Shown here piece after piece: positions 46,358 through 63,689 of a stretch of DNA of 64,000 nucleotides; the stretch's first letter is position 1, and each line of letters begins with the position of its first letter. The notes beneath the pieces were generated by a model. It searched no databases. It saw only the letters and a program-made list of their open reading frames with translations, and had not been told where the DNA came from. The stretch covers positions 94,008-158,007 of IMG/VR virus record IMGVR_UViG_3300029288_007060; one strand, given 5' to 3'. The DNA is from a virus. Its lineage: Duplodnaviria > Caudoviricetes. The position numbers were made by a program, and so were the translations under genes.

Positions 46358-48613
46358 TTAATACTTTTTAACTATATTCATTAAATTGCTGTAATCAATC
46401 ACAAAATTAATAGCTGGTTGAACAAAAACACCAGTGAATTCATTAGTTTTTTGCTTGTTGTTAAAGTCTTGCTCTAATTTTTGCAACGAACTAACAGTAG
46501 CGGAATCTAATGTTCCAGTCGCAGGAATCTTTAAAAAAGATTGTATTTTGGTCACATTGTCGTTTGTCTGGCCCGGTTTGTTTGTTTGTTTGCTGGGAGC
46601 CTGTACGCCAGGCACACCAACTCGACTGGCCAAATCATTAAAAGATAAGGCGAGTTTGTACACAAAATCTATTATTTGATTCTTGGCTTGTTCTGCCACA
46701 CTCTTATCTTCTGCGTTTTCTTCGACTAAGTTCCACTGACTTACAGCATCATTAAGAGACTTTAGCTCTTTGCTCATTCCAGATACATATTTTGAAATAG
46801 ATTGCTCTGGATTTGATTCCAACCCATCATTTATCAATTTTTGCATCTCGTCAATATTATTCATAGATGTTTTAACTTTATTCACTATATCTTGGCCAGG
46901 ACCATAAGTACGAACTTTACTTAGTGGATCTTTGACATTTTGGGCCGCACGGACTACCTGGCTGGGGTCATTTTTATGAAACCAATCAAATACTCCAATA
47001 GCGCCGAGCGTGGCTGCCGCACCACCAGCAAGCACAGTGACAGGAAGACCTAATGTTTTCGCCTGGTCTTGTACTGTCAAGCCGAATAGTTTATTTCTTA
47101 ATGGAATTTTTCCACTCTCTATTATTTTTGCTATTCTGTCCGTACTATTTAATTGCAATAATTTGGCGATATTGTCAGGATTTGCCTCGAACAATTTACG
47201 CATTTCTTCCGCACCAGAAGTTCTTTTTAGAGCAAGATATTCTTGCAAAAATGCAGCGTCATTATTAAGATTTTTACTTTTTGCAGACAATACCATTGCG
47301 TTAGTATCGAATGCTTTTTTCATATTTTCTAACCATGTTCCAGAATATTGTTGCAGCTGAGGATTGTTTTTCATCATGGCGAGAGCCGTACTTTCTCCGC
47401 CTGGCTCACTGGCAACTTGCCGTATAGAAATTAATGTATTGATATAGCTTTTGTCACCTTTTATATTTTCTAATAATTTATTTCTTTGTATTATATCCTC
47501 GTCACTTTTTCTAATAAGCTCATTTGCTAATTCTGGCCTATTTTTTGCCATTATTTTGTTTTTTTCTATTGAACGCAATAATCTACCAGCCTCAGACTCA
47601 TTTGCATTTACGGCTGATTGAAGTTTGGTAATCTGGTCGGCTAAACTTTTGCTTGCTATAGAAAGTGATTCTTTTATATCTTGTGAGTGTTTTGTGACAC
47701 TTTCTGTAACAGAAGTCAGATCTCTGAGTATATCATCTGCGTGCTCTGCTATTTGTTCAGAACTTTTGGTTGCCTTTCCTGATTTCCACCAAAGTTTTAA
47801 TGCGCCTGCAACTTCAGGCGTAGCTTCTGCTACCTTACCTGCAGCTGCCCCGCCCAGCTTAAAAGTGTTTTTGGTCAACCACCAAATAAGTTTGGGTATA
47901 GCTGTTATTATTCCGGCACTCTTGATAAAAGTTGTTTGTGCACTCTCTTCTAATGTTATTTCACCTCTCCACAAAGCCATTATTTTCTCTCTCACGATCA
48001 TAACTTTAGATGGCATTGTGCCCCCGAACATATAGGCGAGATGACGCGCGCGGTCTAACGCTATGGTCATTTCTACACTGTCGCCCTTTACCGCATAGAA
48101 TTTAGCATCAGATAAATGACGATTTATTTCCTTAATAGCTCCACATGTTCTACCATCTGCTTCTTTGTGTAACGGGCTTACCTCGCCGTCTTTAATGCAA
48201 GTGCCGCGGTCAAAAGGGCAGTTATCCATAAGAGCCAAAACTTTTTCGGCCACATTAGTTAGTGCGTCGGCTGATTCAGAATCGCCTAGTTCGTCACAAA
48301 TATCGGCCATTTTGGTCAAAGTAGTAACAGCAGATGCGTAAGTTCCTAACAAAGCACCAGTGGGCATCTTATTAATAACCGTCATCATTTTCTCATGCTG
48401 TTCGTTTTGATTTTCCACCAAACCGCCATCGCCTCGTGATTCAGCAACATACACTTTCTCCGGATGTGCTTGTTCAATCAAGTCCTCTTCAGGAAATTCT
48501 CTCTTCTCTTCTATAATTTTCTTGTCTTCTGCATACGGGTTTTTGGCCGGGGTTTCTTGCTCGGCCATTATCTTCATAAACTCCCGCATCACTTCTGATG
48601 TTTCGTAGCCCAT
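46358..48613 (-). CDS. Putative internal virion/ejection protein (tag, TM segment, PG-binding-like C-terminus)
   Basis: Tag LTKMADICDELGDSESAD; TM LGLPVTVLAGGAAATLGAIGVF; VTKIQSFLKIPATGTLDSATVSSL. Confidence 0.5.
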   Translation of the reverse strand: MGYETSEVMREFMKIMAEQETPAKNPYAEDKKIIEEKREFPEEDLIEQAHPEKVYVAESRGDGGLVENQNEQHEKMMTVINKMPTGALLGTYASAVTTLTKMADICDELGDSESADALTNVAEKVLALMDNCPFDRGTCIKDGEVSPLHKEADGRTCGAIKEINRHLSDAKFYAVKGDSVEMTIALDRARHLAYMFGGTMPSKVMIVREKIMALWRGEITLEESAQTTFIKSAGIITAIPKLIWWLTKNTFKLGGAAAGKVAEATPEVAGALKLWWKSGKATKSSEQIAEHADDILRDLTSVTESVTKHSQDIKESLSIASKSLADQITKLQSAVNANESEAGRLLRSIEKNKIMAKNRPELANELIRKSDEDIIQRNKLLENIKGDKSYINTLISIRQVASEPGGESTALAMMKNNPQLQQYSGTWLENMKKAFDTNAMVLSAKSKNLNNDAAFLQEYLALKRTSGAEEMRKLFEANPDNIAKLLQLNSTDRIAKIIESGKIPLRNKLFGLTVQDQAKTLGLPVTVLAGGAAATLGAIGVFDWFHKNDPSQVVRAAQNVKDPLSKVRTYGPGQDIVNKVKTSMNNIDEMQKLINDGLESNPEQSISKYVSGMSKELKSLNDAVSQWNLVEENAEDKSVAEQAKNQIIDFVYKLALSFNDLASRVGVPGVQAPSKQTNKPGQTNDNVTKIQSFLKIPATGTLDSATVSSLQKLEQDFNNKQKTNEFTGVFVQPAINFVIDYSNLMNIVKKY

Positions 48614-48615
48614 TT

Positions 48616-50262
48616 TTATCTCCTAAAACTCATTTGACCTGGTCCAGGTTGAACTCCATCGTGAAGTTCTATAACATAATCTCTTAAAGTCTTTGCTCTA
48701 TTAATCCAATCTCCGGGCAAACCAGTTACCCTTGATTGTAATGCTTCATTAACTATTGTCGCCTGTTCTTCTACTGTTCTGTATCCCCACATTGCTAACC
48801 ACTCGCTTGCGCGCATAGCAGGCCGGCCCTTTTCCTGAATAGTCATAGTCATTAGACAAGACGCAATTTCATCTGGGTCCATATTATCTTTTCCGATAGG
48901 ACAGCGAGCAGAAATTGCAGGTGCTTCAGGTTTATCTTTATTTTCTTCTTTACCACCAGATATTGATTTTTGGAAAGCAGCCAATGCCTTATAAATTCCA
49001 TTAAGCTTCTCTTGATTTTTATTAAGCTCGTTGTAATTAAAAACATCTTTGCCAGTTATGTCTATAGATTTCAAGTATTCTTCTAGCTCTGGTATTTTTA
49101 CCATGAGGTCATTTAATGAGGCTGCGCTTTGAGGACCAAAAATTCCGTCTGCAACCAAATCCGGCCTGTCCAACATTTTGAAGTTGTTTATGGTGGTTTG
49201 AATGGCCGCCACTGTATTATTTTTTGTTTGTCCGACTTGTCTGGTCCTGGCCGTAGGTGCGGTAGGTTGTTTGTCACCTATCTGAGTACCATCTGCCAAA
49301 ACTAATGCTCGTTTAGAAATAGCGGGCTTATAAGAAGATTTTTTGGTAGATTTGGACAAATAGTTTATAGCCTGTTCTAAAGATGATTTGAGCTTAGTTA
49401 AATGAGGCATTCCTTGCTCTAATTCTGCCTCACCTATTGTCTCATCGGTCTTTAATAATATTTTTTGTGCCAAATTCCAAGCATAGTCTTCGGATGGAGT
49501 CAAGCCCGGGGCTTGATTTTGATTCAACGAGACAACCTTAGAATAAAGAGAGGATATATCATTAGCCAAAGTTAAATAATCTTTTCCAGATTTTTTGCTA
49601 GATTGCTGAACAACCTGTATGGTGGCTTCTTTTAATTTCTGCTGAAGAGACACGAATTGCTTTTGAATAGCATCAGAAGTTAGATTGATTGCATTTTCAG
49701 CTTCACCAATATCCCAGCCAACATCGGTTAGATTTTTTTTCACTTCGGGCCATTGTTGCTTGAGTGTCGCTAGGTAATTAACCAACATTTTCATTTGGCC
49801 TAGTTGTGTTAGGACAATTTGGGCGTCTTGTTCTTTATTGCCGGATAATGGACGCACAACGAATACTGTCTTATAAGCCTCTAAATTTTTAATCCAATCA
49901 TCTACAATTTGTTTTGCATTTTCGTTAGGATCCAAGACTTTAATACGGCTCACTAAATCGTTTAGATTATTATCTGTGATTTGAAATGTTCCATGAAAAG
50001 CATCATAAAGACCCCATCCCAATAAGGCTGTACCCAACACCCAACCTATAGGGCTGGCTCCTAAGGCAACCGCAGCGCCTACGCCACCGGCTAACCCTGT
50101 TCCAGCAGCAAGGCCTACGCCAGTACCAATTGCCGCTGGTATACCGACTTCTGGTATTAGAGCTTGTGCCAAATCTTTCCAACTCCAAGCTAGTTTAATA
50201 AGCTCGGGTTGCATTAAAGAGGCATACTTTAATAATATTTCATCTCTAGTGGATTGGGGCAT
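48616..50262 (-). CDS. Putative internal virion/ejection protein (glycine-zipper TM region, PG-binding domain)
   Basis: GIPAAIGTGVGLAAGTGLAGGVGAAVALGASPIGWVLGTALLGWGL; VAAIQ...LVADGIFGPQSAASL. Confidence 0.55.
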   Translation of the reverse strand: MPQSTRDEILLKYASLMQPELIKLAWSWKDLAQALIPEVGIPAAIGTGVGLAAGTGLAGGVGAAVALGASPIGWVLGTALLGWGLYDAFHGTFQITDNNLNDLVSRIKVLDPNENAKQIVDDWIKNLEAYKTVFVVRPLSGNKEQDAQIVLTQLGQMKMLVNYLATLKQQWPEVKKNLTDVGWDIGEAENAINLTSDAIQKQFVSLQQKLKEATIQVVQQSSKKSGKDYLTLANDISSLYSKVVSLNQNQAPGLTPSEDYAWNLAQKILLKTDETIGEAELEQGMPHLTKLKSSLEQAINYLSKSTKKSSYKPAISKRALVLADGTQIGDKQPTAPTARTRQVGQTKNNTVAAIQTTINNFKMLDRPDLVADGIFGPQSAASLNDLMVKIPELEEYLKSIDITGKDVFNYNELNKNQEKLNGIYKALAAFQKSISGGKEENKDKPEAPAISARCPIGKDNMDPDEIASCLMTMTIQEKGRPAMRASEWLAMWGYRTVEEQATIVNEALQSRVTGLPGDWINRAKTLRDYVIELHDGVQPGPGQMSFRR

Positions 50263-50270
50263 AGTTCACC

Positions 50271-51497
50271 TTACTTTATTTTTGGAGCAGCGGGAGAGAA
50301 AGCAGGTGCAAACCTATTCTCAGGATTCACAACCGGTCTATATTGCTCGGGCTTCAACGGCGCAGGTGGAGCCTCTGGAGGAGCCGCTGGAGGCGTAGTT
50401 GTTTGCGGTATCGGTTCAAGTTCCGGTTGTTTGGGTTGTGAGCTTTTCCATGCGGCCTCAGTATTCGGGCCCCATATACCATCCTCTTTTAAAGCGCCCT
50501 TCGTTTTATTGTATGACTGTTGAAACTGCAAGACTTTCGGATTGGATTTGTTTGCATTTTGTACAGGCTTGGTAGGTTGTTGAATCACAGGTGCCGCAGC
50601 TGCTGGTGTAGTTAGCGGCGGCCAGTTGCCCGTACCAGGCATACGTGATTGCTGCGAAATATCATTACGTGTCTGCTGGACGGGATCATAAGGCATATAC
50701 ATATTGCCGGGATACGTATCTGACTCAAGTGCTTTTTTTATTAAAGTATCCACCTTATTAGCAACTTCGACAAATCCGCCGTCATCGAGTTTATTTGCTA
50801 ATGTAATCAAAGTATAATTAAAGACTTCTTCTGGAGTTGCCACCAATTTAATAGCATGCTCTAAATCTTTCAGAACATCCGTATGGCCCATCTTATTTAA
50901 TTTTTCGTATAAGTCCATCAAGGTGGCATAAGTTCCCTTTGGAACAGAGTGGGCAACATCAATGTCTGTCTCCTGTTGCTCTAATATAGTTTCAATAAGA
51001 TTGCCTTCGTCATCTTTATGATAAGTAACCTCTGTGTGCATTTTGCCAGGATGAGCGCTATCAACCAAATCTTTACCTGTTTCACCACTAACATCGTATC
51101 CTTCAGTTGCCTCAACAACTAAATCTGTTTTGGTACTAGAGCGTTTTGCCATGGCCTCTTGTAGCTTGGGAGCCAGTGCAGCGTACAGATTAGGGTCGCC
51201 TAGTTTAATTTTTTCAATAACGGCGTTGAACTTTGCAAAATCTCTAATCGCTGTAGGAATATTAATTCCTTCTAGCAATCGTTTCTTTTCCAAATCATCA
51301 ACAACTTTAGATGCATTCAAAAGCTCTGTCCATTTTTCCATTGGTGCTCCGACTGGGCGTTCTTGCCGTTCTCCAAGTGGAATTGGGGTCGGTACGGCAG
51401 GCATTTGGTCTGCAGCCGTTTTAACAAAATTTTTCTCCCCAGCTATACGAGCATATTCTCGCATTACTAATGATTCGTCAAAGCTTATTGTGCGCAT
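50271..51497 (-). CDS. Putative internal virion protein (tags, PG-binding domain, Pro-rich tail)
   Basis: LITLANKLDDGGFVEVANKVDTLIKKA; VLQFQ...LKEDGIWGPNTEAA. Confidence 0.55.
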   Translation of the reverse strand: MRTISFDESLVMREYARIAGEKNFVKTAADQMPAVPTPIPLGERQERPVGAPMEKWTELLNASKVVDDLEKKRLLEGINIPTAIRDFAKFNAVIEKIKLGDPNLYAALAPKLQEAMAKRSSTKTDLVVEATEGYDVSGETGKDLVDSAHPGKMHTEVTYHKDDEGNLIETILEQQETDIDVAHSVPKGTYATLMDLYEKLNKMGHTDVLKDLEHAIKLVATPEEVFNYTLITLANKLDDGGFVEVANKVDTLIKKALESDTYPGNMYMPYDPVQQTRNDISQQSRMPGTGNWPPLTTPAAAAPVIQQPTKPVQNANKSNPKVLQFQQSYNKTKGALKEDGIWGPNTEAAWKSSQPKQPELEPIPQTTTPPAAPPEAPPAPLKPEQYRPVVNPENRFAPAFSPAAPKIK

Positions 51498-51549
51498 CTG
51501 TTATCTCCTATTTTTATTATATCATCTTGAAATATTTTCTATAAAACTA

Positions 51550-52242
51550 TTACATCCACATAAATTCAATCGAATTGTTAATTCCAGTTGGAGGGCCCGT
51601 AAGCACCGCCACTCCTGGGTGCGATGGGGTGATTCTTTCTGTTGTCAACAAGCCTTCAGCATTACAAAACAACGTGGCATTCACAACATATTGCTGAGTT
51701 GGATCAAATTGGTCTGTTTCATAAATCCCTCTTTGAAACCAAACAGTGATGCGGCCACTAGAAACTGTGGTATTGTCTCCAGGTATATTGGCTATCCTAT
51801 ATGTATAGTTCACAATTGTTCTGATAGAATCTGGTATTGAGTCACCGTCAGAGTCGTAATTGAGCGTGCTTCCGGCCGGAACAGAAATTACACCATTCAC
51901 ATCATAAAGTATAAGGCCTTCAATATCGGCCGTAAAACTACTACGAACTATATTGGAAAATCTTAATCTTTTTTCTGTATCTATAGCGGACACATAATGT
52001 CCATACCCATCACCCACGCCGACCAGCGGAATAACAACAACTTCATCAATAACAGATGCTGTGAAAGCAGACGTATTAATGTCGTCAATTATTCCTATTG
52101 GCGCTGTACCATCACTAACCCCGCAAACTATTTCGTTTCCAAGAACTTTCATTTGGCCTATCTGACCCGGCTGAAATGTGCTAGTTGGATCGACGGGAAA
52201 TGAAACCGGTAGACTGGATCCGACCTGGATTAACTTTAACAA
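51550..52242 (-). CDS. Second capsid decoration-like protein
   Basis: TTG start at 52242 after GGAGG; SGRITVWFQRGIYETDQF...LFCNAEGLL, paralogous to 45537-46250. Confidence 0.55.
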   Translation of the reverse strand: MLKLIQVGSSLPVSFPVDPTSTFQPGQIGQMKVLGNEIVCGVSDGTAPIGIIDDINTSAFTASVIDEVVVIPLVGVGDGYGHYVSAIDTEKRLRFSNIVRSSFTADIEGLILYDVNGVISVPAGSTLNYDSDGDSIPDSIRTIVNYTYRIANIPGDNTTVSSGRITVWFQRGIYETDQFDPTQQYVVNATLFCNAEGLLTTERITPSHPGVAVLTGPPTGINNSIEFMWM

Positions 52243-53153
52243 GACAAACCTCCACATTGGGCTATGAATTTTTTAATTGAGTGATGGTCAAACCCATATT
52301 CTCTTCCAATCGCAGAATAACTTTGCCCATCATTATACATTTTTAATATTTTTTCTACACAGATATCCAAAATTTTTATCGTGTGTGGTTCATCTGGGCA
52401 ATCAATTATATGCCATTTGTACATCAAACAATTGCACGGGCACCCGATAATTTTTGTTATAAGTTTTTTATAATATTTTCTTGGTATATAAATTCTGGGA
52501 TAATCCCTATCTCTCTGAATCCAACAGACATGATATATACCAACAAATTCATCTAATTTCTTGCAAAGATATTCTGCATCTTTAAAAGAAAAAGCGTTTG
52601 TGGAAAGTCTCATTGCCCCAGATTTATTTAAAGTTCCATCATCCATAATCCAAAAAGTAATCGATTCCGGCGACAATTCTAAATTTTTTGGGACAATTTT
52701 CTTTTTATCTAGATACCAAAGATTGTATAATTCAGCAAACTGAGTTGTACTTTCTGTGAATAACCTATAACTGTCTGTTTTAAATTTTTTATCAATTGAG
52801 TGATATTTTCTACAATGTACGTGCTCTTTTTCAAACAAATCTATAATATAATCCACGTACTCTTCATGTTTTTGAGCAAAACAAAAATATGCTTGGTTGC
52901 CAGTATAATGCAAACCACCATCTCCCAAAAGCCACCCATTTATACAATTTAATAATTTGTATGAAAGTGGCTTGTCATTATTAAATCTTAAAATATTATT
53001 TTCCCTACTGGTGCGCATTTTAATTCCGTTGCGTTTTAAGACATTATAAATTGGAGTGCGGCTAACACCAAATTGCTCTGCCAATTGGTAAGCCGAAACT
53101 CCCAACAAATAACTCTCAATTATCGCTTGTTCTTTCCCGGACAACTTTTCCAT
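52236..53153 (-). mobile_element. Free-standing LAGLIDADG homing endonuclease (LLGDG / W-x-MDDG type) with HTH ends
   Basis: INGWLLGDGGL and FWIMDDG, LSTNAFS; ATG 53153 with GGGAG RBS. Confidence 0.85.
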
Positions 53154-53176
53154 TCTTGCTCCCAATATAGAAAACA

Positions 53177-53191
53177 AATATTGATATATTT
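53177..53191 (-). promoter_or_regulatory. Putative late promoter (variant)
   Basis: AAATATATCAATATT, overlapping the upstream stop codon. Confidence 0.5.
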
Positions 53192-53543
53192 ACTTATCCA
53201 AATTTTGATTCAAAACTTGTAGAGCATCATCAATAAGATTAGAAGCGTCTGTGGCGCCTGCATCATCTAATTCATTGGCCAATTTAACCAAGTCATTAAT
53301 AATACCAAACATAACCGCGGACTTCTTCTTTTTCTTATCTTTTTTCTCGTCTTTCTTTTCTTCCTTCTCCTCTTCTTTGTCTTCCTTTTTCTCTTCTTTC
53401 TTTTCGTCCTTATCCTCATCCTTCTCGTCTTTCTTTTCTTCCTTCTTCTCTTCTTTGTCTTCCTTCTTTGCAGCAGTCTTAACCATATCTACATCAAGAA
53501 GTTTGGCAAGATTCCTCATCATTTCATTACCGGATTGTGACAT
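53190..53543 (-). CDS. Small charged head-core protein (K/E/D low complexity plus C-terminal tag)
   Basis: VKTAA, then ~50 aa of K/E/D, then LVKLANELDDAGATDASNLIDD. Confidence 0.6.
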   Translation of the reverse strand: MSQSGNEMMRNLAKLLDVDMVKTAAKKEDKEEKKEEKKDEKDEDKDEKKEEKKEDKEEEKEEKKDEKKDKKKKKSAVMFGIINDLVKLANELDDAGATDASNLIDDALQVLNQNLDK

Positions 53544-53553
53544 TGTATTCTCC

Positions 53554-54315
53554 TTATAATTTGGTCTTATATTTTAATTTCACAGGTTCAGATTTACCCA
53601 ACTCCTGTTTCTGTTTAAGAACTCTTTTAGCTTCTTCATCGAATTGTTTTGTGGTTACTGGTTTCCCTTCTATATACAGCCAATAAAATTCGGGGTCAGT
53701 AACAGCTATTCTTCCGGCCAGGTGACGCATTTTGTTAAATATGTTGTTTAAAAAAACGTCTCCCTTAGATTCTGGGTCATGTGCCGACCGGGATATTTGT
53801 TTGTCCAACACTGCCTTCCAAAGCTCCGTGTTTAAATCGGTCAATTCATCGAATCTGTATATTTCTTTCATTAGGGCAATCATGGGGTCTTTGCTTATTA
53901 ATGCCTTGGCAGCGGGATATAGCCATGGTTTAAGTTCTATTCTACGGTGTAAATCCCAGGCAAAATAATCTTCTGGTGATTTCTCCACTAACTCGTTCAT
54001 GGTATTTTTTACAAGTGTTTGGTTCTCAGGCTGTCTTATCCATCCACGATACGGTTGTTTTGTTCCTCTTAAAAACTCTTGAGTATGATACTTTGCGGCC
54101 CACTCCGCTGTGCCTTGTTTGGGCTCAACGTCTCTATTGGAAATAGGCTTCTCTTTTATCTCTAGCGGCACAGGAACAGTTTGAGATAAATCAGTCGATT
54201 TTTCTGGAGGCATCACTTCTAATTCTTCTGTCTTCGGTGGCACAGGAATATCTATTGCAAGCTTATCCAATAAGGCAGCAAATTTAAAAAGTATTTCGTC
54301 TTTTATACCAATCAT
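53554..54315 (-). CDS. Hypothetical head-region protein
   Basis: N-terminus DEILFKFAALLDKLA resembles DEILLKYASLM...IKLA of 48616-50262. Confidence 0.55.
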   Translation of the reverse strand: MIGIKDEILFKFAALLDKLAIDIPVPPKTEELEVMPPEKSTDLSQTVPVPLEIKEKPISNRDVEPKQGTAEWAAKYHTQEFLRGTKQPYRGWIRQPENQTLVKNTMNELVEKSPEDYFAWDLHRRIELKPWLYPAAKALISKDPMIALMKEIYRFDELTDLNTELWKAVLDKQISRSAHDPESKGDVFLNNIFNKMRHLAGRIAVTDPEFYWLYIEGKPVTTKQFDEEAKRVLKQKQELGKSEPVKLKYKTKL

Positions 54316-54323
54316 TTAAAGCC

Positions 54324-54467
54324 TCAATTAGACTCACTATCATTTTTTTGAAACCAGGATTCGTAATATACTTCTAAAAATCCTAATATTTCTTCTTCAG
54401 TTAATTCCATTTTCTTTAAGTCTTCAATTTCAACATATAATTCAAGCGCGTCCATCAAGTTTTTCAT
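54324..54467 (-). CDS. Possible small acidic protein
   Basis: MKNLMDALELY... fills the gap; weak RBS. Confidence 0.3.
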   Translation of the reverse strand: MKNLMDALELYVEIEDLKKMELTEEEILGFLEVYYESWFQKNDSESN

Positions 54468-54486
54468 ATGCAACTCATAAGGAGGC

Positions 54487-54513: not shown

Positions 54514-54548
54514 TGTTATTTTATATGAACTCCAAGAACCTTATACTA

Positions 54549-57500
54549 TTACTTCCAGCCCAAAGTATTAAGACCGTCTAACATAGATACTTCTTGGGTT
54601 GGTTCAGCAGATGCAGTAACATTCAATGATTCTGCTGCGGCATCAAGACCCACTCTTGGTATTGAACCACTATTTTTCTTTTCTACTGCATTTATACTTG
54701 CAACAATGCGCTTGGTTGATTCGAAAGCTGCATCGTCAAACTGCATAACTTCGTCAACATAGTTGTCTAAAGATGCGCGGGTAGAGTGTATAATGCCCTT
54801 CTCTTGTGCTTGTAAACCAAGGTCATAAGCTCTGCGCAATTTAATCTTATAAGCGCCATCGCTGGCTTCTTTCTTTTTAGAAGCAAACTCTTTGCTCAAA
54901 TCAGCACCAAAACTTCCAGCGCCAGGAGCCTGACTAAAGAATTTCTTCCAATAGCTAACGGTTTCTGAATCAACTTTGCCTTCAGCAACCAATTTATCCA
55001 TATCCTCTGCTTTAATTGAGCCTTCAACAATCTTTTCTTGAAGGATTGCAGCAGCTTCACGCACATTGCGTGGGCCAGATTCTGCCACATCACGCATTAC
55101 TTCGTGAATCTCTTCAATTGTCTCTACCTTAGCTTCTGGGGTCTTGGTTCCAGTAAGCTCGGTGGTAGTGCCACCTTTTGGATGTGCTTGGAAGAAAGTT
55201 GGTTCTGTAGCATTCTCTGCGGTATCCAAAGTTAGGGGCTTATCATGAATGGTAGGATATTGCAATTTATTAGCTGCCGCGGCAACTAACTTTTCTCGGT
55301 TACTCTTACGAGCAGCACAAGTCTCAATTGCATCTTCTTCCACCATCATAGAATCGTCGGCCTTCATGCATTTGCATTCTTTGTCTTTTGCGCCGTGACA
55401 AACAGAACAAGTCTCTTGGGCAGCATCTTCTGCAACGGCCAGCATAGCAGCCCGATTTTCGGCACGAACTTTCAATGCCTTATCCAAAAGCTCTTGGGCT
55501 TTCTTTTCTTTGTCCTCTTTTTTGTCTTCTTTCTTATCTTCCTTATCTTCTTTCTTTTCTTTCTTCTTTTTCTTAGCATCGACAACTAAACTGGCCTGGG
55601 CCATAATAGTTTCGCTGTCTTGTAATACTTGACTAACGACCTCAAGCATCTTATCATCAGCGGATTTTTCTAAGGCTTCACTGGCAAGAGCCAATTCGTC
55701 AGCCGATTCATCCATCAATGATAGAACAGAGGCGGTCAATTCGTCTAATTTGCCGGGTTCTTTCTTAGAGACATCGACATCAATGTCAACAAGTCCCTTG
55801 CCGCCAGACAATTCACGAATTTCCTCAATCTTCTCTTCAACAGCATTCAAAGCTGCATTAATCTTATCTTGAGCCTTATCTTTCTTGTCATCCTTAGGCT
55901 CTTCTGCAGGAGCTGGGGCTGGAGCCGCAGCATCAGGAGCTGGAGCCGGGGCTGCTGGAGCCGGAGGCATGTCAACTGCTGGGACTGCATCTGCGCCCTT
56001 TAGTAAATAAGCAACGCGGTCAAAACCCTCGTTGCGAATATGGGCCATAACATCCTTGCCATATTCTTTTGAATTGAGATAATCCCAATTGGTGTCCAAT
56101 TCGTCACCATAGATTTCAGAACCAGTGGCAGAAAGAATCATCTTATCGCCAGCAAAAATGTCCCAATGAGAGGCGTCTTTGCGAATCCCGCCCTTATCAT
56201 CGGCAACTTTGGTAAACACTGCGCGCAATTTGGCACGCAACATCTTTTCTTTAACCGGCTTGTCAGCAGGAACCATACCATCAGTTCCGCCCATTTCATA
56301 AAGGCCAGTCATTTGCTTGTCTTCGGTATCACGGATTTTGTCCGCGTCTTCTTTCGGATACTTTTCTTTGCCTGGAGTTGGTTCATTTAAGCCACCGCCG
56401 CCGAGCCAATAAGCCCTGCGCTTCATCTTTCTTTCTTCCAATTCAGATTTCTTAAGATTTAGACCATCGCGGCCAATTTCCTTAAGTTTCTGCTCGTCAC
56501 CAGGGAACAATCCATCCGATCCTGTCTCAAGTGGTTCACCCACCATTTGCTTGTCTTCACTATCACGAATCTTTTGATAATCACCCATTTCTGGATATTT
56601 TTCTTTGCCGGGAGTAGGTTCATTAACGCCCCCACCACCAAGCCAATAAGCTCTGCGTGCTTTTGCGCGTGCCCGTAATCTAGCTGAGTTCATATTATTT
56701 TCCTCCTTAGAAAATGTTTCTTTCAGTTCTTTGATTGAGTCTTGTACAGACTCGATTTTGGATCGAAGGAGACTAATTTCTTCTAAAGTTCCCTGTTTCA
56801 TGTTGTCTCCTTCTTTATTTGCATATCTGCTTGATGGATTTAATGATCCAGGAGCAGGTTGTGCTGTGTCTTGGTCACTCATTGTACTCATGCTTGGTCC
56901 ACCACCCATAGTGGCCTGCGGCCATACTTTGAGGTCTTCATCTTGTTCTTGTACTGGTTCTTTCACTTTATCTGAAAGCTCATCGATAAATCCATCGATT
57001 TTTTCTTTGAGCATCTTTTGTCTTTCTGGGTCGTCTTCTCTATCTATCTGATCTTGTAGTACTTGGATTGCTTTACCAACTTCACCTAAGTCAGACGCGG
57101 TTTTGTCACCAGCAGTTTTCTGTAGGCTCATTAGGTTATTAAGCTTCGCCTGAATCTCGTTAACTGAGTCGGCCAAAGATTGAAGTTCTGTAGGATTAAC
57201 GCAACGGTCATTAACCAATTGGTTTATCCTTTCTTGTTTCTTTTCAACATAATTATTTACAGAGGCAATAATGTTATGAATTTTCGCCAACTGATCGGCA
57301 CCATTAACAACCAGGCTGATTTCAATAGGACTAAGGTCTAAATTAATTTCGCCGTAATTGCTGCGAGATTTAATGCATTTACAATAATCCTTTTCGGTGG
57401 TAGCAACATTGCCACATTCGGTACACACAGCCCTTCCAACCGCCGTGCCCATACTGACTGAGTTGGAGTATCCTGTTTCAACCTTTCGAGCCAAATCAGA

Positions 57501-58019
57501 GTAGTTTTTTCTATCGAGAGCACATAATGCATGTACTCTTTTGAATTTTTTGTCATAAAACGTATCAACGATTATACCACGTATACCGTCAACCGAATCA
57601 GATTTGTGGTCTTTACAAACTGGGCGCCCTTGCCATTTTTTATGAGCCTTAATAAGCTCAGCCTCACCAAAAATATCCCCGTTTAAGTTCTTGTAAGGCT
57701 TAATTCCGTCTTTGCTAATCCACTTGATAGACTCTTTGCCCTTTACTCTTATTGGTTCAAAATGCCCCTCAATAGGTTCACCTTTTGCGTTTAGAATTGG
57801 CTTTCCAGTCTTTTGATCTATTAATGCGCTCTCGGCCGCATGCATCATTATAGTATGGAAATAAAGGAAATCTTTAGCCTTTGGAGCAATCCGCTTTAAT
57901 TTTTTGGCCAGTTTAATAAATTGTTCAGTAATTTCTTGTGTTGCCAGCGCCTGTTTTGGCGACAGTAGACTTTTTTCAGCATCAAAATTTAAATTTTCGC
58001 CAATCTTGTTAAACGACAT
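54549..58019 (-). CDS. Prohead maturation protease fused to scaffold (1156 aa)
   Basis: N-terminal NLNGDIF...PVCKDH...GIIVD...SVSMG + CTEC/CKC insert + EISLVVNGAD, an HK97/assemblin-like protease pattern; long charged helical C-terminal region. Confidence 0.8.
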   Translation of the reverse strand: MSFNKIGENLNFDAEKSLLSPKQALATQEITEQFIKLAKKLKRIAPKAKDFLYFHTIMMHAAESALIDQKTGKPILNAKGEPIEGHFEPIRVKGKESIKWISKDGIKPYKNLNGDIFGEAELIKAHKKWQGRPVCKDHKSDSVDGIRGIIVDTFYDKKFKRVHALCALDRKNYSDLARKVETGYSNSVSMGTAVGRAVCTECGNVATTEKDYCKCIKSRSNYGEINLDLSPIEISLVVNGADQLAKIHNIIASVNNYVEKKQERINQLVNDRCVNPTELQSLADSVNEIQAKLNNLMSLQKTAGDKTASDLGEVGKAIQVLQDQIDREDDPERQKMLKEKIDGFIDELSDKVKEPVQEQDEDLKVWPQATMGGGPSMSTMSDQDTAQPAPGSLNPSSRYANKEGDNMKQGTLEEISLLRSKIESVQDSIKELKETFSKEENNMNSARLRARAKARRAYWLGGGGVNEPTPGKEKYPEMGDYQKIRDSEDKQMVGEPLETGSDGLFPGDEQKLKEIGRDGLNLKKSELEERKMKRRAYWLGGGGLNEPTPGKEKYPKEDADKIRDTEDKQMTGLYEMGGTDGMVPADKPVKEKMLRAKLRAVFTKVADDKGGIRKDASHWDIFAGDKMILSATGSEIYGDELDTNWDYLNSKEYGKDVMAHIRNEGFDRVAYLLKGADAVPAVDMPPAPAAPAPAPDAAAPAPAPAEEPKDDKKDKAQDKINAALNAVEEKIEEIRELSGGKGLVDIDVDVSKKEPGKLDELTASVLSLMDESADELALASEALEKSADDKMLEVVSQVLQDSETIMAQASLVVDAKKKKKEKKEDKEDKKEDKKEDKEKKAQELLDKALKVRAENRAAMLAVAEDAAQETCSVCHGAKDKECKCMKADDSMMVEEDAIETCAARKSNREKLVAAAANKLQYPTIHDKPLTLDTAENATEPTFFQAHPKGGTTTELTGTKTPEAKVETIEEIHEVMRDVAESGPRNVREAAAILQEKIVEGSIKAEDMDKLVAEGKVDSETVSYWKKFFSQAPGAGSFGADLSKEFASKKKEASDGAYKIKLRRAYDLGLQAQEKGIIHSTRASLDNYVDEVMQFDDAAFESTKRIVASINAVEKKNSGSIPRVGLDAAAESLNVTASAEPTQEVSMLDGLNTLGWK

Positions 58020-58092
58020 CTGTCATCTCCTCGATAATTTTTGAACTCTCGGCCCACTTTGTAATATCTTCTATCGTATACTTTGCTATATA

Positions 58093-59475
58093 CTACTCTT
58101 CCTTCCATTCTCCGCCTGTTACGTTTGTAATTGCTATTCCATTAGGACTCATACGACCAACAGAATTCGCATCGTTGGCCTCATCACTCTCTTCCTTCCA
58201 AAAATTGGCCAAATCTTTTTCATCTAATTTGTCGTGACAATAACAATCACCGGCACAATCTTCGGCACATTGTTCACAGTGTTCTAATTCTTCTTTTGGT
58301 CCCGAATCCTTTGCGTCATAGTCTTCATACTTAGTTGACGGAGGCATTTCTATCTCGAGGCCAGAACCATCACAATGCCCGCAGGCATCTCCGTGCGGTC
58401 CACTATGCCCTTTTCCTTTACAGTATCTGCAAAGATTTTCTTTCTCTGTCTCGGCTTCTGATTTTGTATCTTTCTTACTTTGTGAGTCAAAAAAATCTTC
58501 GGCAGATTGTATAGGCGAACCTTGTGGAATCGCCCCAACAAAAGATTCTATTCCATCTTTTCCGGGTCTACGGCCAGCAGTCATCTCATAAAATTTCTTA
58601 GTGGCTATATTCAATCGCTCTTCGTTCTTAGACATATCTATCATAATTCTGTCCAAGTCCAAATGCTCTACCGTATTGTCGATATCAAAATATCGCAAGC
58701 GTTTAAAGAACTCTTGTAGGAGGGTAATTGATTCTTTGATTTCATTATCAGCTTTGTGTAAGAACAATAGAAGATTCTTTTTGGTTCCATCATCGAGATG
58801 TTTTAGTGGAGCTTTTGGACGGGCGGCTTCAGAAATCAAAGATGCTTCGGAGTCTGAAGCTACAGGTTTAAATTCTTTATCTCCAATTCCTAAAATATCT
58901 AAAGCACTTTTGAAATCGCCGTTCTCTACAAGTATTTGTAACGCTGCGACCAATTGTGTTCCTATTTGAGATTCCAAATTATGAGTGAACTCTGGTTTCG
59001 ATAACGTTTCTTGAACACGAAACCCGTCATTATCTCTAATGGCCATTTTTAATTGGCCTCGCATTATTCTCATTTCAGGGGTGAGTTTTGAAGGATCAAG
59101 CGCCGCCGTCTTAATTGACTTAAACCGCTTGTCCATTTTTGGATATAGTCCTTTGCCACCAGAAAGCAAAATGGTGTTATTTAGTCCAACGGTCATAGTG
59201 CCATCAGGATGTTTTGTGACTTCAAAAGCACGGCCAAGACTCGCTAAAATCTTAGCAACTCTCTCGGACTTGCCTTTTTCAGTCAGCATGTCTAATTCGT
59301 CTGAAGATATTTTTATAGATTGAACTGGAGGCATTCCCATTGGAACAGATTTAGGAATCATGTCTTTGATTGTTTTGTCAATTTCTGCAGCAAGTGCAGA
59401 CTTACCTTCTTGGTCTAACTTGTCAGCCATTTTAATTAATTGGTCTATATATTCTTTTTTAGATATAGGCATCAC
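58093..59475 (-). CDS. Tagged head-region protein with DnaJ-type CxxCxGxG zinc finger
   Basis: N-terminal LIKMADKLDQEGKSALAAEID; CRYCKGKG...CGHCDGSG; CEQCAEDCAGDCYCH. Confidence 0.6.
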   Translation of the reverse strand: MMPISKKEYIDQLIKMADKLDQEGKSALAAEIDKTIKDMIPKSVPMGMPPVQSIKISSDELDMLTEKGKSERVAKILASLGRAFEVTKHPDGTMTVGLNNTILLSGGKGLYPKMDKRFKSIKTAALDPSKLTPEMRIMRGQLKMAIRDNDGFRVQETLSKPEFTHNLESQIGTQLVAALQILVENGDFKSALDILGIGDKEFKPVASDSEASLISEAARPKAPLKHLDDGTKKNLLLFLHKADNEIKESITLLQEFFKRLRYFDIDNTVEHLDLDRIMIDMSKNEERLNIATKKFYEMTAGRRPGKDGIESFVGAIPQGSPIQSAEDFFDSQSKKDTKSEAETEKENLCRYCKGKGHSGPHGDACGHCDGSGLEIEMPPSTKYEDYDAKDSGPKEELEHCEQCAEDCAGDCYCHDKLDEKDLANFWKEESDEANDANSVGRMSPNGIAITNVTGGEWKEE

Positions 59476-59482
59476 CTAACTC

Positions 59483-59656
59483 CTAATTCAATTCTTCTGA
59501 TTTTTCTATTTCGCAATCACAAACGAGCTCATTTTCTTCGTCCGTAATAGAAATGGCTTTAAGTTTTTTCCCACACTCTGGACAATAACATTCTTTTCCA
59601 TTATCATCAAAATAATCCAAAATCGGTATTTCGTCTCCAATTTTAATGAATGACAT
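59483..59656 (-). CDS. 57-aa zinc-ribbon protein; not in the supplied ORF track
   Basis: AGGAG RBS; MSFIKIGDEIPILDYFDDNGKECYCPECGKKL...LVCDCEIEKSEELN*; fills the gap between neighbours. Confidence 0.75.
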   Translation of the reverse strand: MSFIKIGDEIPILDYFDDNGKECYCPECGKKLKAISITDEENELVCDCEIEKSEELN

Positions 59657-59657
59657 A

Positions 59658-60245
59658 CTATCTCCTGGCCAATATCTTTAATATACGACTTCCTCTTCGA
59701 ATATTAAATCTTAGTTCGCTAATCTTTGTCTTTCCCAAAATGTCTTGGTTTATATGCGCAAACAATTGATTGTCTACGACATCCTTAATCGATTTGTTGC
59801 GTTTTTCAATTTGAAAACAAACACGCTCAAGAGTCTGAGTAAATCCTTCTTTGTCTGGCTCTTTCAATAAGTCTAACACGGCTTCTGCACCATCGGACAA
59901 CTCACCAACCTCGGCCAATAGAATCTCTTTTAATCTCATCATATTGGGGTCAGTTATTCCTGAAAGTTGTTCTATTCCTGATTTGGTTGAAAGCAAAAAA
60001 TCGTTAAATGACTCTTTAATTTTTCTACCGTATCTCAAAAGACGGCCTTTATATTTTCCAGCCAAATCGCCTTTTGATGGTCTTTGTTGAGTAATGGCGT
60101 CTTTTAAATCCAATATAACTTTAACCGACTTATCTAATTTCTTTAAGATTTCCTTAAAATTCTCTTTAACTTCCTTAGCTGTAGAGCGTTCGGAGTCCGT
60201 AATAGTCAAATTGGATGGTTGTCCATAAATAGCATTTTTGTTCAT
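59658..60245 (-). CDS. Hypothetical helical protein
   Basis: First gene after a late motif; ATG 60245 with GGAGA (60281 is an alternative start). Confidence 0.6.
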   Translation of the reverse strand: MNKNAIYGQPSNLTITDSERSTAKEVKENFKEILKKLDKSVKVILDLKDAITQQRPSKGDLAGKYKGRLLRYGRKIKESFNDFLLSTKSGIEQLSGITDPNMMRLKEILLAEVGELSDGAEAVLDLLKEPDKEGFTQTLERVCFQIEKRNKSIKDVVDNQLFAHINQDILGKTKISELRFNIRRGSRILKILARR

Positions 60246-60294
60246 TATAGACAAGTCTCCATTTTGCACACCATTACGCATACTTATAAAATAA

Positions 60295-60309
60295 AATATT
60301 GATAGATTT
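60295..60309 (-). promoter_or_regulatory. Putative late promoter for the protease-scaffold unit
   Basis: AAATCTATCAATATT. Confidence 0.7.
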
Positions 60310-60389
60310 TTTATATTTTTATACTAAGTTTAATTCCTTTTGTGATTAAAAGTAATATGTGTAAGTGATTGAAATTGTAAGATTCTTTA

Positions 60390-61169
60390 TTAAGCTGGTC
60401 CATATGCACCTTCTAAATCGCCATATCCGCGATACATATACGCGTCACTCAGACCCTGAAAAGAACCGCAGTTGCTATTGTCTGTCACACTATTACCATC
60501 TCTGCCGTTAGAACGAGCTACAGCCTCATTTCCTTGTTTTTCTTTTTCAGCAGGATCCATCTTTTGAGTTTTCTTATTTTTTCTGTCTTCTTCTAAATTA
60601 TGTATTATTTTAACCAATTCTTCATCAATAGCGTCTGCCTCATCAAATAGGCCCTTTTCATCTAATTCGTTGGCCAATTTTACTAATTTCTTTAATATTT
60701 CGCGCCCCACAAGAGAAGGGCTATCAACACTGAAAAGGCTCGGCGAACTGCCAGCACTGCCATCATACACTGGGCCACAGCCTGGTTCGCCACGAGGACC
60801 ACCCACATTCGTTTGATTGTCAGTATTTACAAACATATCAACAATATAATCTTCATCGTCTGAATCTAAACTTCCGTCTATAGAATCCATCGCAGCATAA
60901 ATTTTGTCTGATGGTTCTTTAAATCCTATTTCGTCCAAAAAAGTAGCTATATTAGAAAGCCTATTTAAAGTCTTGGTATGGAAATCGTCTACTTCGCCAT
61001 CTTCATTGTGCGCTTTAAAAAAGTGCACATCTGCTTCATGTTTTTTCGCAGCAGACAAAGAATCAAAAGTGCCTAAATTTCTACGCTTCCCATCAGGCCC
61101 TTTCTTTTTAGAATAAAGGCGATATTTTCCCGATGGAAGTTTTTTAAGGATACTGGTTTTGATTAGCAT
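60390..61169 (-). CDS. Tagged head-region protein with basic N-terminal mini-domain
   Basis: GKYRLYSKK...RRNLGTFDSLSAAKKHE; two tag copies. Confidence 0.6.
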   Translation of the reverse strand: MLIKTSILKKLPSGKYRLYSKKKGPDGKRRNLGTFDSLSAAKKHEADVHFFKAHNEDGEVDDFHTKTLNRLSNIATFLDEIGFKEPSDKIYAAMDSIDGSLDSDDEDYIVDMFVNTDNQTNVGGPRGEPGCGPVYDGSAGSSPSLFSVDSPSLVGREILKKLVKLANELDEKGLFDEADAIDEELVKIIHNLEEDRKNKKTQKMDPAEKEKQGNEAVARSNGRDGNSVTDNSNCGSFQGLSDAYMYRGYGDLEGAYGPA

Positions 61170-61803
61170 GATAAAAATTATACCTTTTTCTCTACCTTGG
61201 GAGGATACTCTACGACAGGCGCTGGCCCAATAGTAAGAGGAGGAATTGTAGCCGGTTTAGGAGTAGGCTCTCTGCGCTTTGGCGAATCATCCGCCTCAAA
61301 CGTAGGCGTGTTTAATGCCTTCAGCTTATCTATAATGCTGTCTCTATGGTTTATTAGACTATGCAGGCGCAATCTCCACCCACCATCATAATCTGCCTGC
61401 GGAAGACACTCTTCAATATCTTCTTTCACTCTCTTAAGTTCTTCTTCTAAGGTTTCTGTTTTAACCAACGAATCTACTTCGTCTGCCTCATCAAATAGGC
61501 CCTTTTCATCTAATTCGTTGGCCAATTTTACTAATTGTTTTAATAAGCTCATTTTGCTCTCCGTTTGTAATGCGGGTGCGTTTAATTTTTTCAGCCTGGC
61601 GATAATATCGTCTCTATGATCCATTAGATTACGCAAACGCAATCTCCATCTATCATCCGAATCCATCCATAACCATGCTTCGTCAATATGCTCACGTATG
61701 TTCTTAAGCTCTTCTAAGATTTCTCTTTTAGCCAACGCATCTGCTTCGTCTGCTGCACCAAACAATCCCTTCTCATCTAATTCGTTGGCCAATTTTACTA
61801 ATT
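60632..61803. repeat. Tag-encoding DNA repeat: 57 bp identical at 60632-60688 and 61480-61536; 31-bp core also at 61773-61803
   Basis: cgtctgcctcatcaaataggcccttttcatctaattcgttggccaattttactaatt, compared base by base. Confidence 0.9.
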
Positions 61804-61819
61804 TTTTTAACAGACTCAT
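61178..61819 (-). CDS. Tagged protein made of two tandem ~89-aa units
   Basis: MSLLK[KQ]LVKLANELDEKGLF...WRLRL..L..HRD.II..LK.LN.P occurs twice. Confidence 0.7.
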   Translation of the reverse strand: MSLLKKLVKLANELDEKGLFGAADEADALAKREILEELKNIREHIDEAWLWMDSDDRWRLRLRNLMDHRDDIIARLKKLNAPALQTESKMSLLKQLVKLANELDEKGLFDEADEVDSLVKTETLEEELKRVKEDIEECLPQADYDGGWRLRLHSLINHRDSIIDKLKALNTPTFEADDSPKRREPTPKPATIPPLTIGPAPVVEYPPKVEKKV

Positions 61820-62211
61820 TTTGTTCTCCGTTTAATTTCTCCACGAAACACTTTATCTAACCATTCTTGAGTCATTCTTTGTTTCTTGGTGGTATCTGGA
61901 GCTTCTTTAAATGATTTTTGTATAACTATAATATCATGTCTTCCAGTTTTCCTAATCACAGCAATGTATACAAACTCATGGGATTTTCTTATTTCGGCTG
62001 GTTCTTCGGAACGCAATATGAATCGGTGCAATGGGGTGGCAGAATTATAATCCATTGCTATCAAATAATTGATAGAATCATTCGGCCCGAGCATACCAGG
62101 AACGCTTTTATAATACTCTCTCCAGTACTTACGAACCTTGGTGGATATTCCAATGCTGCCACCACCGCTTGGTGTTTCGATTCCTGCATTATGTCTGAGA
62201 GAGAGTTTCAT
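61816..62211 (-). CDS. Hypothetical basic protein
   Basis: Translationally coupled to both neighbours (TAA-ATG, ATGA). Confidence 0.55.
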   Translation of the reverse strand: MKLSLRHNAGIETPSGGGSIGISTKVRKYWREYYKSVPGMLGPNDSINYLIAMDYNSATPLHRFILRSEEPAEIRKSHEFVYIAVIRKTGRHDIIVIQKSFKEAPDTTKKQRMTQEWLDKVFRGEIKRRTK

Positions 62212-62922
62212 TTATTTCCTATGATTAATAAAATATACCAAATACGGGCTTGCGGTGCATATAGAAACATGATCAAACCCATTTGGACCCGCCACCAACA
62301 TACCCACAACAAATCCTTCTGCATTAAACACCGGGGAACCCGAATTGCCAGGCGCTGCTGCGGCATCTACCGTTAGTTTGGAAGGCATTCCTTCATACAT
62401 ATCCTTGCTGTCCTTTAATACTGTTTTGCCTTCAAACGATGTGGCAAATACGCCCAAAGGAGCCCCAACAATATATACGGTGGTATGCAATGGCATACCA
62501 GAATAATTGGGCGTGAATTTAACAGGAGCTAGCCCATGGCCGTCTTTCTGCAACAAACAAATGTCATTTTTGGCATCGATTTTAAGTATCCTTAGCCCAT
62601 TAGTTTCTAATATAGTTTCGTCATCAGGGGCATAGAATTGCATAAAGATATCATTTACCAAAACGCCCGCGGCCTGGTATTGTAAAATTCCAGCGCAAAC
62701 GTGTCCAGCAGTCATTATCTGGTTTTTGTTAATAGCAAAGCCGGCGCCAGACATTTGTCTTCCATCGGGACTTTTACCAACAATCATGCCAATAGATTTG
62801 TAGGTCTTATTAACATCGAAACTCGGCTTTTTAGATTGGGTGGCGTCAGAATCTACATTAAAATTGAAAGTGCAACAAGCGGTAACAAGAAACAAGCAAG
62901 CAACTAAAAATCTTTTAAACAT
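62212..62922 (-). CDS. Trypsin-like (S1) serine protease, probable lipoprotein
   Basis: Triad motifs TAGHVC, DICLL, GNSGSP; signal MFKRFLVACLFLVTA-C; ATG 62922 with GGAG. Confidence 0.85.
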   Translation of the reverse strand: MFKRFLVACLFLVTACCTFNFNVDSDATQSKKPSFDVNKTYKSIGMIVGKSPDGRQMSGAGFAINKNQIMTAGHVCAGILQYQAAGVLVNDIFMQFYAPDDETILETNGLRILKIDAKNDICLLQKDGHGLAPVKFTPNYSGMPLHTTVYIVGAPLGVFATSFEGKTVLKDSKDMYEGMPSKLTVDAAAAPGNSGSPVFNAEGFVVGMLVAGPNGFDHVSICTASPYLVYFINHRK

Positions 62923-63005
62923 ATACAGCTCCATTTATTTGAATTTTTAAATTACGCTTTTTATGCTACTGCTCAATCATATATTACTTACCTCTTGCGT
63001 GGTAT

Positions 63006-63689
63006 TTAACTTTCTTTTATTAAGTCATCAATCCTAACTTTCCCCTCCACTATATCTCTAACCGTCAAAGTCTCTGGAATAAAAACATCTTTTAAGTGTG
63101 GACTAACAGTTGGGCGCCCCAAGTCTAAATCTGGATTGCCTTTAACAATGTTCAACAACCCTCTGGCCCCGGCCAAATCCCCATTATGCAAGAAATTCAT
63201 TAGTGTTCGAAAATCATCTGTCGTAAGTTGTAGGTCAGAAGCAGAAATATGAGACATTATGTTTTTGGCAGTTTCCAGGTCATCACTCTTCAGTGCTTTA
63301 ATCAGCATATTGGTTTGAGCCATAGAGGCCATTTTTATTAGTTCGTCGACTTTATCCGCCTCCGCATAAAGACCTTGTGAATCTAATGAATTTGATATTT
63401 TAACTAATCTTTTTATAAGACAACATGTTCTTTTGATGTCTTTAAAAACCCCATCTTCCTTAGCAGAATCTTCCATTTTTTCTAAGCGGGTGTAATAATC
63501 AGGTATTTCAGTCAGGTGGTCTAAAGCAATATCTTGGGCTATTTCAGTATTGGAGTTGTGCTCATACTCAATTTCAATTCCGGCATCTAATTCTTTTGAA
63601 TCAACATCTTTTGGCTCGGTGAATTGCCCCAACCCACCAGGAATTTTGTCTGTAGGGCTGCTTTCTTCCCTTTTTGATAGTTTTTTCAT
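63006..63689 (-). CDS. DUF5661-like domain protein carrying the tag
   Basis: GIEIEYEH...IALDHLTEIPDYYTRL, then LVKISNSLDSQGLYAEADKVDELIKMA. Confidence 0.6.
   Translation of the reverse strand: MKKLSKREESSPTDKIPGGLGQFTEPKDVDSKELDAGIEIEYEHNSNTEIAQDIALDHLTEIPDYYTRLEKMEDSAKEDGVFKDIKRTCCLIKRLVKISNSLDSQGLYAEADKVDELIKMASMAQTNMLIKALKSDDLETAKNIMSHISASDLQLTTDDFRTLMNFLHNGDLAGARGLLNIVKGNPDLDLGRPTVSPHLKDVFIPETLTVRDIVEGKVRIDDLIKES

Follow-up and report, generated by a model that had tools for sequence, protein, structure and literature searches.

A portable two-helix tag on seven head-region proteins encoded by a 158-kb virus contig: a probable docking module and candidate capsid-loading signal

In phage T4 the capsid-targeting sequence (CTS) is a short, strictly N-terminal peptide that is cut off by the prohead protease, and the coat-binding helix-turn-helix in the scaffolding protein of phage P22 binds through basic residues. 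The CTS is found on the T4 internal proteins IPI, IPII, IPIII and Alt (PMC3012670), and the 36-residue coat-binding helix-turn-helix of P22 suffices for loading fused foreign proteins into capsids (PMC9962691). Here we describe a small conserved protein module, called the tag, that occurs nine times in seven head-region proteins encoded by a virus contig (IMG/VR record IMGVR_UViG_3300029288_007060). The window, i.e. the whole stretch of DNA that was analysed, is the final 64 kb of this 158-kb contig (positions 94,008 to 158,007 of the record); nearly all of its genes are on the minus strand, as are all window features located below. A search of sequencing runs listed the probable source sample only, a DNA metagenome of a landfill, and no RNA data set. 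The tag is well supported as a portable protein-protein docking module. We tentatively propose that in this phage it docks accessory proteins into the assembling prohead, i.e. that it serves in capsid loading.

The nine copies lie in seven genes between 46358 and 63704 and were located by a regular expression and by profile hidden Markov models (HMMs). The tag is 29-35 amino acids (aa) long and has the broad consensus IKELVKLANELDEKGLYKEADEIDEIIKK; window coordinates are given for the 29-aa cores. A preliminary description made from this DNA alone had reported the motif in seven head-region genes, at N-terminal, internal or C-terminal positions. Both statements are borne out: two copies are N-terminal, six are internal and one is near the C terminus. 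The positions given there for the copies also match those found here. The regular expression gave one further match in the 158-kb contig, a chance match in an unrelated context. The profile built from the nine copies found no tenth copy in the six frames of the contig (next match, E 0.1), and the same nine were recovered by two wider profiles, one of 547 copies and the other of 532 copies from which all window sequences had been left out. The latter, independent profile scored the nine copies at E 2e-14 to 6e-4, with the next match in the six-frame contig at E 0.55. The tag had also been said never to occur in tail, neck or endonuclease genes, which holds within the contig, estimated at about 39% of the full genome.

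Copy 1 (IKRLVKISNSLDSQGLYAEADKVDELIKM; 63330..63416, HMM E 2.6e-15) occupies residues 97-125 of the 232-aa product of 63006-63704, which has DUF5661 at its N-terminal end (residues 34-79, E 1.6e-13). Copies 2 (61724..61810, N-terminal, residues 4-32) and 3 (61457..61543, residues 93-121) are both in the 213-aa product of 61178-61819 which, as read from the translation only, resembles two tandem units of about 89 aa, each headed by a tag. The 259-aa product of 60390-61169 contains the degenerate copy 4 (LSNIATFLDEIG / LNRLSNIATFLDEIGFKEPSDKIY...; 60882..60968, residues 68-96, independent-profile E 4e-4) and copy 5 (60609..60695, residues 159-187), and its orthologues in L074 and L003 have two tags each as well. 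Copy 6 (59362..59448) is N-terminal in 58093-59475. The true start of this gene is probably the ATG at 59472, because the database protein P0049 has 459 aa as against 460 aa in the GTG reading. Its orthologues keep the N-terminal tag and differ in the middle of the protein.

Copy 7 (53214..53300) is near the C-terminal end of the 117-aa Lys/Glu/Asp-rich product of 53190-53543. Copy 8 (50733..50819) is internal (residues 227-255) in the 408-aa product of 50271-51497, which has a peptidoglycan-binding-like stretch and a weak PHROG endolysin match (E 1.6e-3), and whose orthologue L009_450_1895 retains the tag. Copy 9, the divergent LTKMADICDELG... (48242..48328, independent-profile E 6e-4), occupies residues 96-124 of the 751-aa product of 46358-48613, and the tag is at the same place in the orthologues L009_3577_4890 and L195_2729_4006, the latter from the relative G009. 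Peptidoglycan-binding-like stretches and hydrophobic segments (the latter identified by eye) are found in two tagged proteins and in an untagged neighbour.

When the tags were masked, comparison of the seven proteins gave no significant similarity except for one 46-aa stretch, i.e. the tag is attached to unrelated bodies. Concerning the identities suggested earlier for these bodies, DUF5661 stands, and a Lys/Glu/Asp-rich body and two CxxCxGxG zinc-finger motifs (in 58093-59475) can be read from the translations, the latter with no Pfam match. The proposed peptidoglycan-binding proteins gave only weak PHROG matches.

An AlphaFold2 model computed from an alignment of 76 sequences consists of a helix (residues 3-16), a three-residue turn and a second helix (residues 20-39), with a predicted local distance difference test score (pLDDT) of 90.4, which is in accordance with the helical hairpin proposed from the DNA. 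Seven positions are more than 90% conserved among the 76 diverse copies: L7, A11, L14, D15, G18, A23 and D27. The tag is net acidic and its conserved exposed residues are acidic. In the model, the tag shares with the P22 coat-binding domain an architecture of two helices and a short turn within about 36 residues. The P22 element, however, is single and C-terminal on the scaffold, whereas the tag is found on a range of accessory proteins and is missing from the scaffold. In a profile search at E<=10, none of the PDB chains of the P22 scaffold matched the tag in sequence.

The analogy to the T4 internal proteins, as drawn in the preliminary description, holds loosely. As with the CTS, one conserved sequence is shared by diverse proteins and its proposed role is entry to the prohead scaffolding core; moreover, in both cases the genes of the cargo are diverse and do not necessarily adjoin the head genes. 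The form of the signal is different. The tag is a folded helix-turn-helix of about 30-35 aa, often occurs two to three times per protein, and has no sequence similarity to the CTS. About 70% of its copies are internal or C-terminal, and more than half are internal. Strictly N-terminal placement is not seen: 2/9 copies in the window and 83/280 database copies are N-terminal. The protease, too, differs from that of T4 in that it is fused to the scaffold in this phage.

Neither in the window proteins nor in 142 tag-bearing database proteins does any Pfam or PHROGs family extend over the tag, and a sequence profile search of the PDB at E<=10 returned designed TPR and Nup93 chains only (designed TPR, E 1e-4). 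As to the possibility, raised at the outset, that the motif is an already described domain with another function, it matches no family in Pfam, PHROGs or the PDB. Neither the curated libraries nor the literature that was searched contains the module, although the concept of phage proteins sharing an address or docking element is itself known. SAP/HeH DNA-binding and helix-hairpin-helix motifs were considered and dropped in view of the acidic second helix, the single Gly and the lack of a Pfam match.

Foldseek gave no significant match between the tag model and the PDB, as expected at 40 residues; the weak matches were mostly TPR proteins, with a root-mean-square deviation of about 0.5 A. Look-alikes in the ESM Atlas were viral clusters without a name only. 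When the nearly invariant L7, A11, L14, G18 and A23 were aligned by hand to the TPR consensus, the conserved residues came into register with TPR positions 4, 7, 8, 11, 20 and 27, with a Gly in the turn. In other words, of the seven small or hydrophobic consensus positions (4, 7, 8, 11, 20, 24 and 27) of the 34-residue TPR unit, six fit the tag, and position 24 is a nearly invariant Asp. Asp residues are found in the tag at TPR positions 12, 21 and 24. The tag resembles TPR (Pfam TPR_1, TPR_10 and TPR_12) in its helix-turn-helix unit and, as aligned by hand, perhaps in the register of the conserved residues. The arrangement is different, since TPR arrays have three or more repeats whereas the tags are usually solitary or about 90-200 residues apart, with a minority of two adjacent units at a spacing of 37-43 residues. 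At E<=10 none of the Pfam TPR models matched five isolated tags and two multi-tag proteins, while the control TPR proteins P0044, P0056 and P0058 scored down to E 1e-158 in the same search. The alignment of the tag to the start of the TPR_10 repeat by hhalign had 12% probability, and three genuine TPR_10/TPR_12 proteins were present among the best 150 tag-profile matches. By these sequence comparisons the tag is a solitary TPR-like hairpin; it is not called a member of the TPR family because of the missing Pfam match and the low hhalign probability.

The likeness to TPR bears on the suggestion that the tags bind one another, i.e. that the hairpins stack or bundle, and that multi-tag proteins cross-link the set into a network in the head core or in the cytoplasm. 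Two copies are present in 99 and three copies in 17 of the 147 best database proteins, some of the tandem copies have the 37-43 residue spacing that is near the TPR period, and the residue pattern fits the TPR positions that make the inter-helix packing. Going by what is established on TPR folding, a single hairpin of two helices would hardly be stable unless it had a partner, and the Lys/Glu/Asp-rich one-tag protein 53190-53543 resembles a linker with a single sticky end. However, the Asp at TPR position 24 replaces a residue that in TPR makes a hydrophobic contact to the next repeat, and many proteins have one tag only. We regard mutual binding of the tags as unlikely, while treating it as a serious rival which would be compatible with a capsid location. 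A single-sequence AlphaFold2 model of the two-tag protein 61178-61819 had a pLDDT of 48 and is informative for the helix positions alone.

Copies 2, 3 and 5 are nearly identical in DNA over about 60 nucleotides, which suggests a recent duplication or gene conversion; the other copies are old. Such recent copying is what one would expect if the tag had no common function and were a small stable helical cap, spread by recombination and aiding folding or solubility. A comparison of orthologue pairs, in which conservation of the tag does not exceed that of the remaining protein, points in the same direction. On the other hand, the seven positions conserved above 90% over 76 copies include the polar Asp15 and Asp27, the tag persists in a clade in which capsid proteins diverge to 58% identity, and up to 12 adjacent genes each start with a tag. 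We consider the absence of a common function very unlikely. A role as a portable docking module is well supported because the hairpin is too small to stand alone and has conserved polar surface residues, and because it is found at any position, on unrelated bodies, and persists across a deeply diverged virus-only clade.

The occurrence of the tag was investigated in several databases. A profile search of 1.84 billion representative proteins found 1098 with E<=1e-3, 26 of them with E<=1e-10; TPR cross-matches account for about 2% of the best 150, a share that is probably larger lower in the list of 1098. Ten of the 1098 proteins were looked up, and all of them come from metagenome assemblies and none (0/10) has a functional name. 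The 147 best proteins contain 280 copies, i.e. 83 N-terminal, 157 internal (56%) and 40 C-terminal ones. A degenerate DNA pattern detected 78 loci in IMG/VR, where the profile identified 153 copies in 144 open reading frames. The tagged genes often form adjacent runs in which each gene starts with M-[IL]-K-E-L-I-K-L-A-[NT]-H-L-D; the runs comprise 12 genes in L075, 7 each in L073 and L050, and 6 in L063.

The same DNA pattern gave 25 matches in 596 Gb of bacterial and archaeal genomes, one of which is a real tag, located on a 1.5-kb contig of a metagenome-assembled genome. The tag is therefore virus-specific and essentially absent from cellular genomes, and from this virus-only occurrence it follows that it serves a phage-specific process. 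A tblastn search of 50,697 GenBank phage records with the tagged proteins and a consensus-like tag gave no match at E<=10. No tag is present in the complete sequence of phage G or in the whole genomes of three further distant relatives, whereas the same query was positive in five members of the clade described below.

The major capsid protein (44335-45351, 338 aa; PHROG major head protein, E 1.9e-76) has 53% identity with gp27 from Bacillus phage G, and more than 300 IMG/VR contigs, with lengths up to 442 kb, encode a relative of it. The best 80 of these relatives are 67-89% identical in the best-matching segment. Because of these matches we place the source, on capsid sequence, as an uncultured huge phage belonging to a large clade, to which phage G is the closest relative in culture. 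Among the large contigs with tags, most code for this capsid protein too, with identities of 58-88%.

In the close relatives, in which the capsid protein is at least 78% identical, most or all of the tags are in the head-packaging module that extends from the terminase to the capsid gene. All copies are in this module in G008 (8/8), G007 (8/8), G006 (9/9) and G010 (6/6). In the complete, 442-kb genome G009, 9/11 copies are in a 45-kb block that begins just upstream of the large terminase and extends through portal and protease-scaffold to the capsid gene, a clustering that by a binomial estimate would arise by chance with a probability of about 5e-8. The orthologues of the tagged window genes retain the tag at the same position. 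In the window itself, the gene of the prohead protease fused to a scaffold-like region (54549-58019, 1156 aa; PHROG head maturation protease, E 8.6e-12) is amid the tagged genes; it is kept in relatives and has no tag of its own. A tagged gene just upstream of the large terminase was considered as a candidate small terminase and this idea was dropped, as the genes at this position are not homologous between sub-clades.

A 16-nucleotide promoter-like motif, AAATCTATCAATATTT, is found at 60294..60309, upstream of 59658-60281. With up to two mismatches there are 10 sites in the contig versus 0.95 expected, all of them intergenic and on the coding strand: seven minus-strand sites at 13323, 29284, 42326, 44184, 46342, 53176 and 60294, and three more upstream of the window. 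The motif precedes tail, decoration and head genes, the sites at 13323, 29284, 44184 and 46342 being those of tail or decoration genes, and it is probably a late promoter. The gene 59658-60281 heads a run that includes the tagged gene 58093-59475 and the protease-scaffold gene; judging from this gene order, the two are probably co-transcribed from the motif at 60294. The exact motif is not conserved in the relatives G002, G003 and G005. In G002 a relaxed core, with one mismatch allowed, stands ahead of 6 of about 8 transcription units with tagged genes versus 17/73 intergenic regions overall, and ahead of a decoration gene as well. Given the AT-rich and degenerate nature of this core, the signal is weak.

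In the mechanism that we tentatively favour for this phage, the tag on seven accessory proteins, whose genes lie from the portal side of the head block up to the capsid gene, would tether them to one common prohead partner, either the scaffolding core or the inner capsid surface. The tethered proteins would then be built into the head, and some of them, i.e. those with peptidoglycan-binding or membrane segments, may exit with the DNA. The prohead is the best single candidate for the target because of where the genes lie, their probable co-transcription with the scaffold gene, the resemblance of some bodies to ejection proteins and the precedent of the P22 helix-turn-helix (PMC9962691).

A number of observations weigh against capsid loading. 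No clearly conserved cleavage motif is seen after the tag, only a mild enrichment of Ala at +1/+2 and of Glu at +3/+4; 24% of the copies have [AGS]-x-E in the 10 aa that follow the tag versus 7% of random windows, the latter being a flawed background. The conserved exposed residues of the tag are acidic, i.e. opposite to the basic helix-turn-helix of P22. The 56% of internal copies, and the two to three copies in most of the best 147 proteins, fit a general interaction module no less than an address.

The location of the tagged genes in the clade members that are further removed (58-73% identity in the capsid protein) points the same way, since most of their tags are distant from the head genes, on small proteins whose gene neighbours resemble chaperonin, sigma-factor and nucleotide-metabolism genes. 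In G002 (94% complete) the head module is compact (18 kb) and free of tags; a single tagged gene is directly upstream of the terminase and another 8 kb off, and the other 13/15 copies are 60-160 kb off, in arrays of small proteins surrounded by chaperonin-, sigma-factor- and purine-metabolism-like genes, as identified from N-terminal sequences only. In G003 10/10 copies are more than 80 kb from the head genes, and in G011 (complete, 372 kb, with terminal repeats) 0/9 copies are within 30 kb of the capsid gene, the nine copies being spread over both strands. Among 80 capsid-centred loci, a tag within 10 kb was found in only 18, mostly those of the closest relatives. The preliminary description had expected an HMM scan to find late or virion genes only. 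In the contig all matches, and in the close relatives most or all of them, are in the head module; in the distant relatives they are mostly on small proteins among non-structural genes. Equally frequent matches in early or host-type genes had been named as evidence against the proposal, and the locations in G002, G003 and G011 go part of the way towards that. As these distant members carry their tags elsewhere, the association with head genes is a robust property of the sub-clade and not of the tag as such.

These locations would be expected if the tag docked to a partner outside the capsid, such as a protein of the host, a chaperone or protease of the phage, or a phage compartment inside the cell, and if its place in the head block were incidental. 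The tagged genes of G002, G003 and G011 are mostly small and arrayed among non-structural genes, separated from the head genes by tens to hundreds of kb, and hairpins of the TPR type are general protein-interaction units. Against this, the tags are strongly concentrated in the head modules of six related genomes and the tag is absent from cellular genomes. Moreover, huge phages often have their virion genes scattered over the genome, which makes distance from the capsid gene weak evidence. We consider a non-capsid partner improbable.

A broader form of the capsid-loading proposal is that the tag is a general, position-independent capsid address throughout the clade, read by one conserved head component, and that interchangeable sets of effectors, on contigs with as many as 19 tag copies, are loaded by it for injection. 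This we consider possible but doubtful. If true, the address would be a natural plug-and-play cargo system that is unlike the T4 signal in form. In any case, huge phages have hundreds of genes without known function, and their protein sorting is almost unstudied, as no member of the clade is cultured. As one conserved module is present on hundreds of unrelated proteins, the reader of the tag would define a shared pathway to which the tagged proteins could be assigned. If the capsid is the destination, the tag would list the injected proteome of the clade, likely made up of anti-defence and take-over proteins, and would provide a small, position-tolerant fusion tag for cargo in large capsids. 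If the destination is elsewhere, the tag would be a pointer to some new system by which infected cells sort or assemble phage-related proteins.

A second shared element was seen in the head block, strictly at the N terminus, in which about 6-12 residues are followed by S/E-x-[VIM]-[ML]-x-[EN]-[FYL]-x-[KR]-[IL]-[AM]. It heads five head-block proteins (48524-48613, 50173-50262, 51408-51497, 53454-53543 and 54226-54315), three of which also have the tag. No other copy was found in the 158-kb contig (next match, E 0.41), and the motif is kept on the G008 and G009 orthologues. A similar helix (...FIKLAKKLK...) is present at the N-terminal end of the protease-scaffold protein. In form, this second motif is closer to the T4 CTS than the two-helix tag is. 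The 46-aa stretch that remained after masking of the tags is common to 50271-51497 (residues 143-188) and 46358-48613 (residues 44-86), with 37% identity and E 0.003. It centres on A-H-P-x-K and may represent another shared element, the third, or a site of processing.

The region from the contig end to the capsid gene also encodes two decoration-like proteins, and 59658-60281, 61816-62211 and 63704-64000 code for conserved proteins that have no tag. The longest open reading frame of the capsid gene is 44335-45459, with a GTG start at 45459 and 374 aa. The ATG at 45351 (M-S-[ML]-F-N-T-H-G-E) is the capsid start in 79 relatives and has a strong ribosome-binding site, so that the protein has 338 aa rather than 374 aa. 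In a contig of L054 (G012:C1:187659-192111) the capsid gene is in four pieces over 4.5 kb with stops between them, which may be introns or homing-endonuclease insertions.

Besides the prohead protease, the head block encodes a second protease, which is trypsin-like (62212-62934; Trypsin_2, E 1.9e-16) and has an apparent lipoprotein signal peptide (...LVTAC...). The protease-scaffold gene of one relative (L177:842-5092) has an insertion of about 400 residues within the protease domain. The insertion begins with C-F-L-P-G-T-K, ends with V-V-H-N-C and has a LAGLIDADG-like part, i.e. it looks like an intein. In G009 three large proteins (698, 1376 and 1268 aa) are encoded between the portal and the head accessory genes (L196:1851-11880), with RNA-ligase-like and ATP-dependent DNA-ligase-like regions; the counterpart of this region in the phage described here is past the contig end. 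Two endonuclease genes are found in this part of the window as well: a LAGLIDADG homing endonuclease lies between head genes (52236-53177), and a 509-aa protein with a C-terminal HNH endonuclease domain adjoins the capsid gene (42602-44131).

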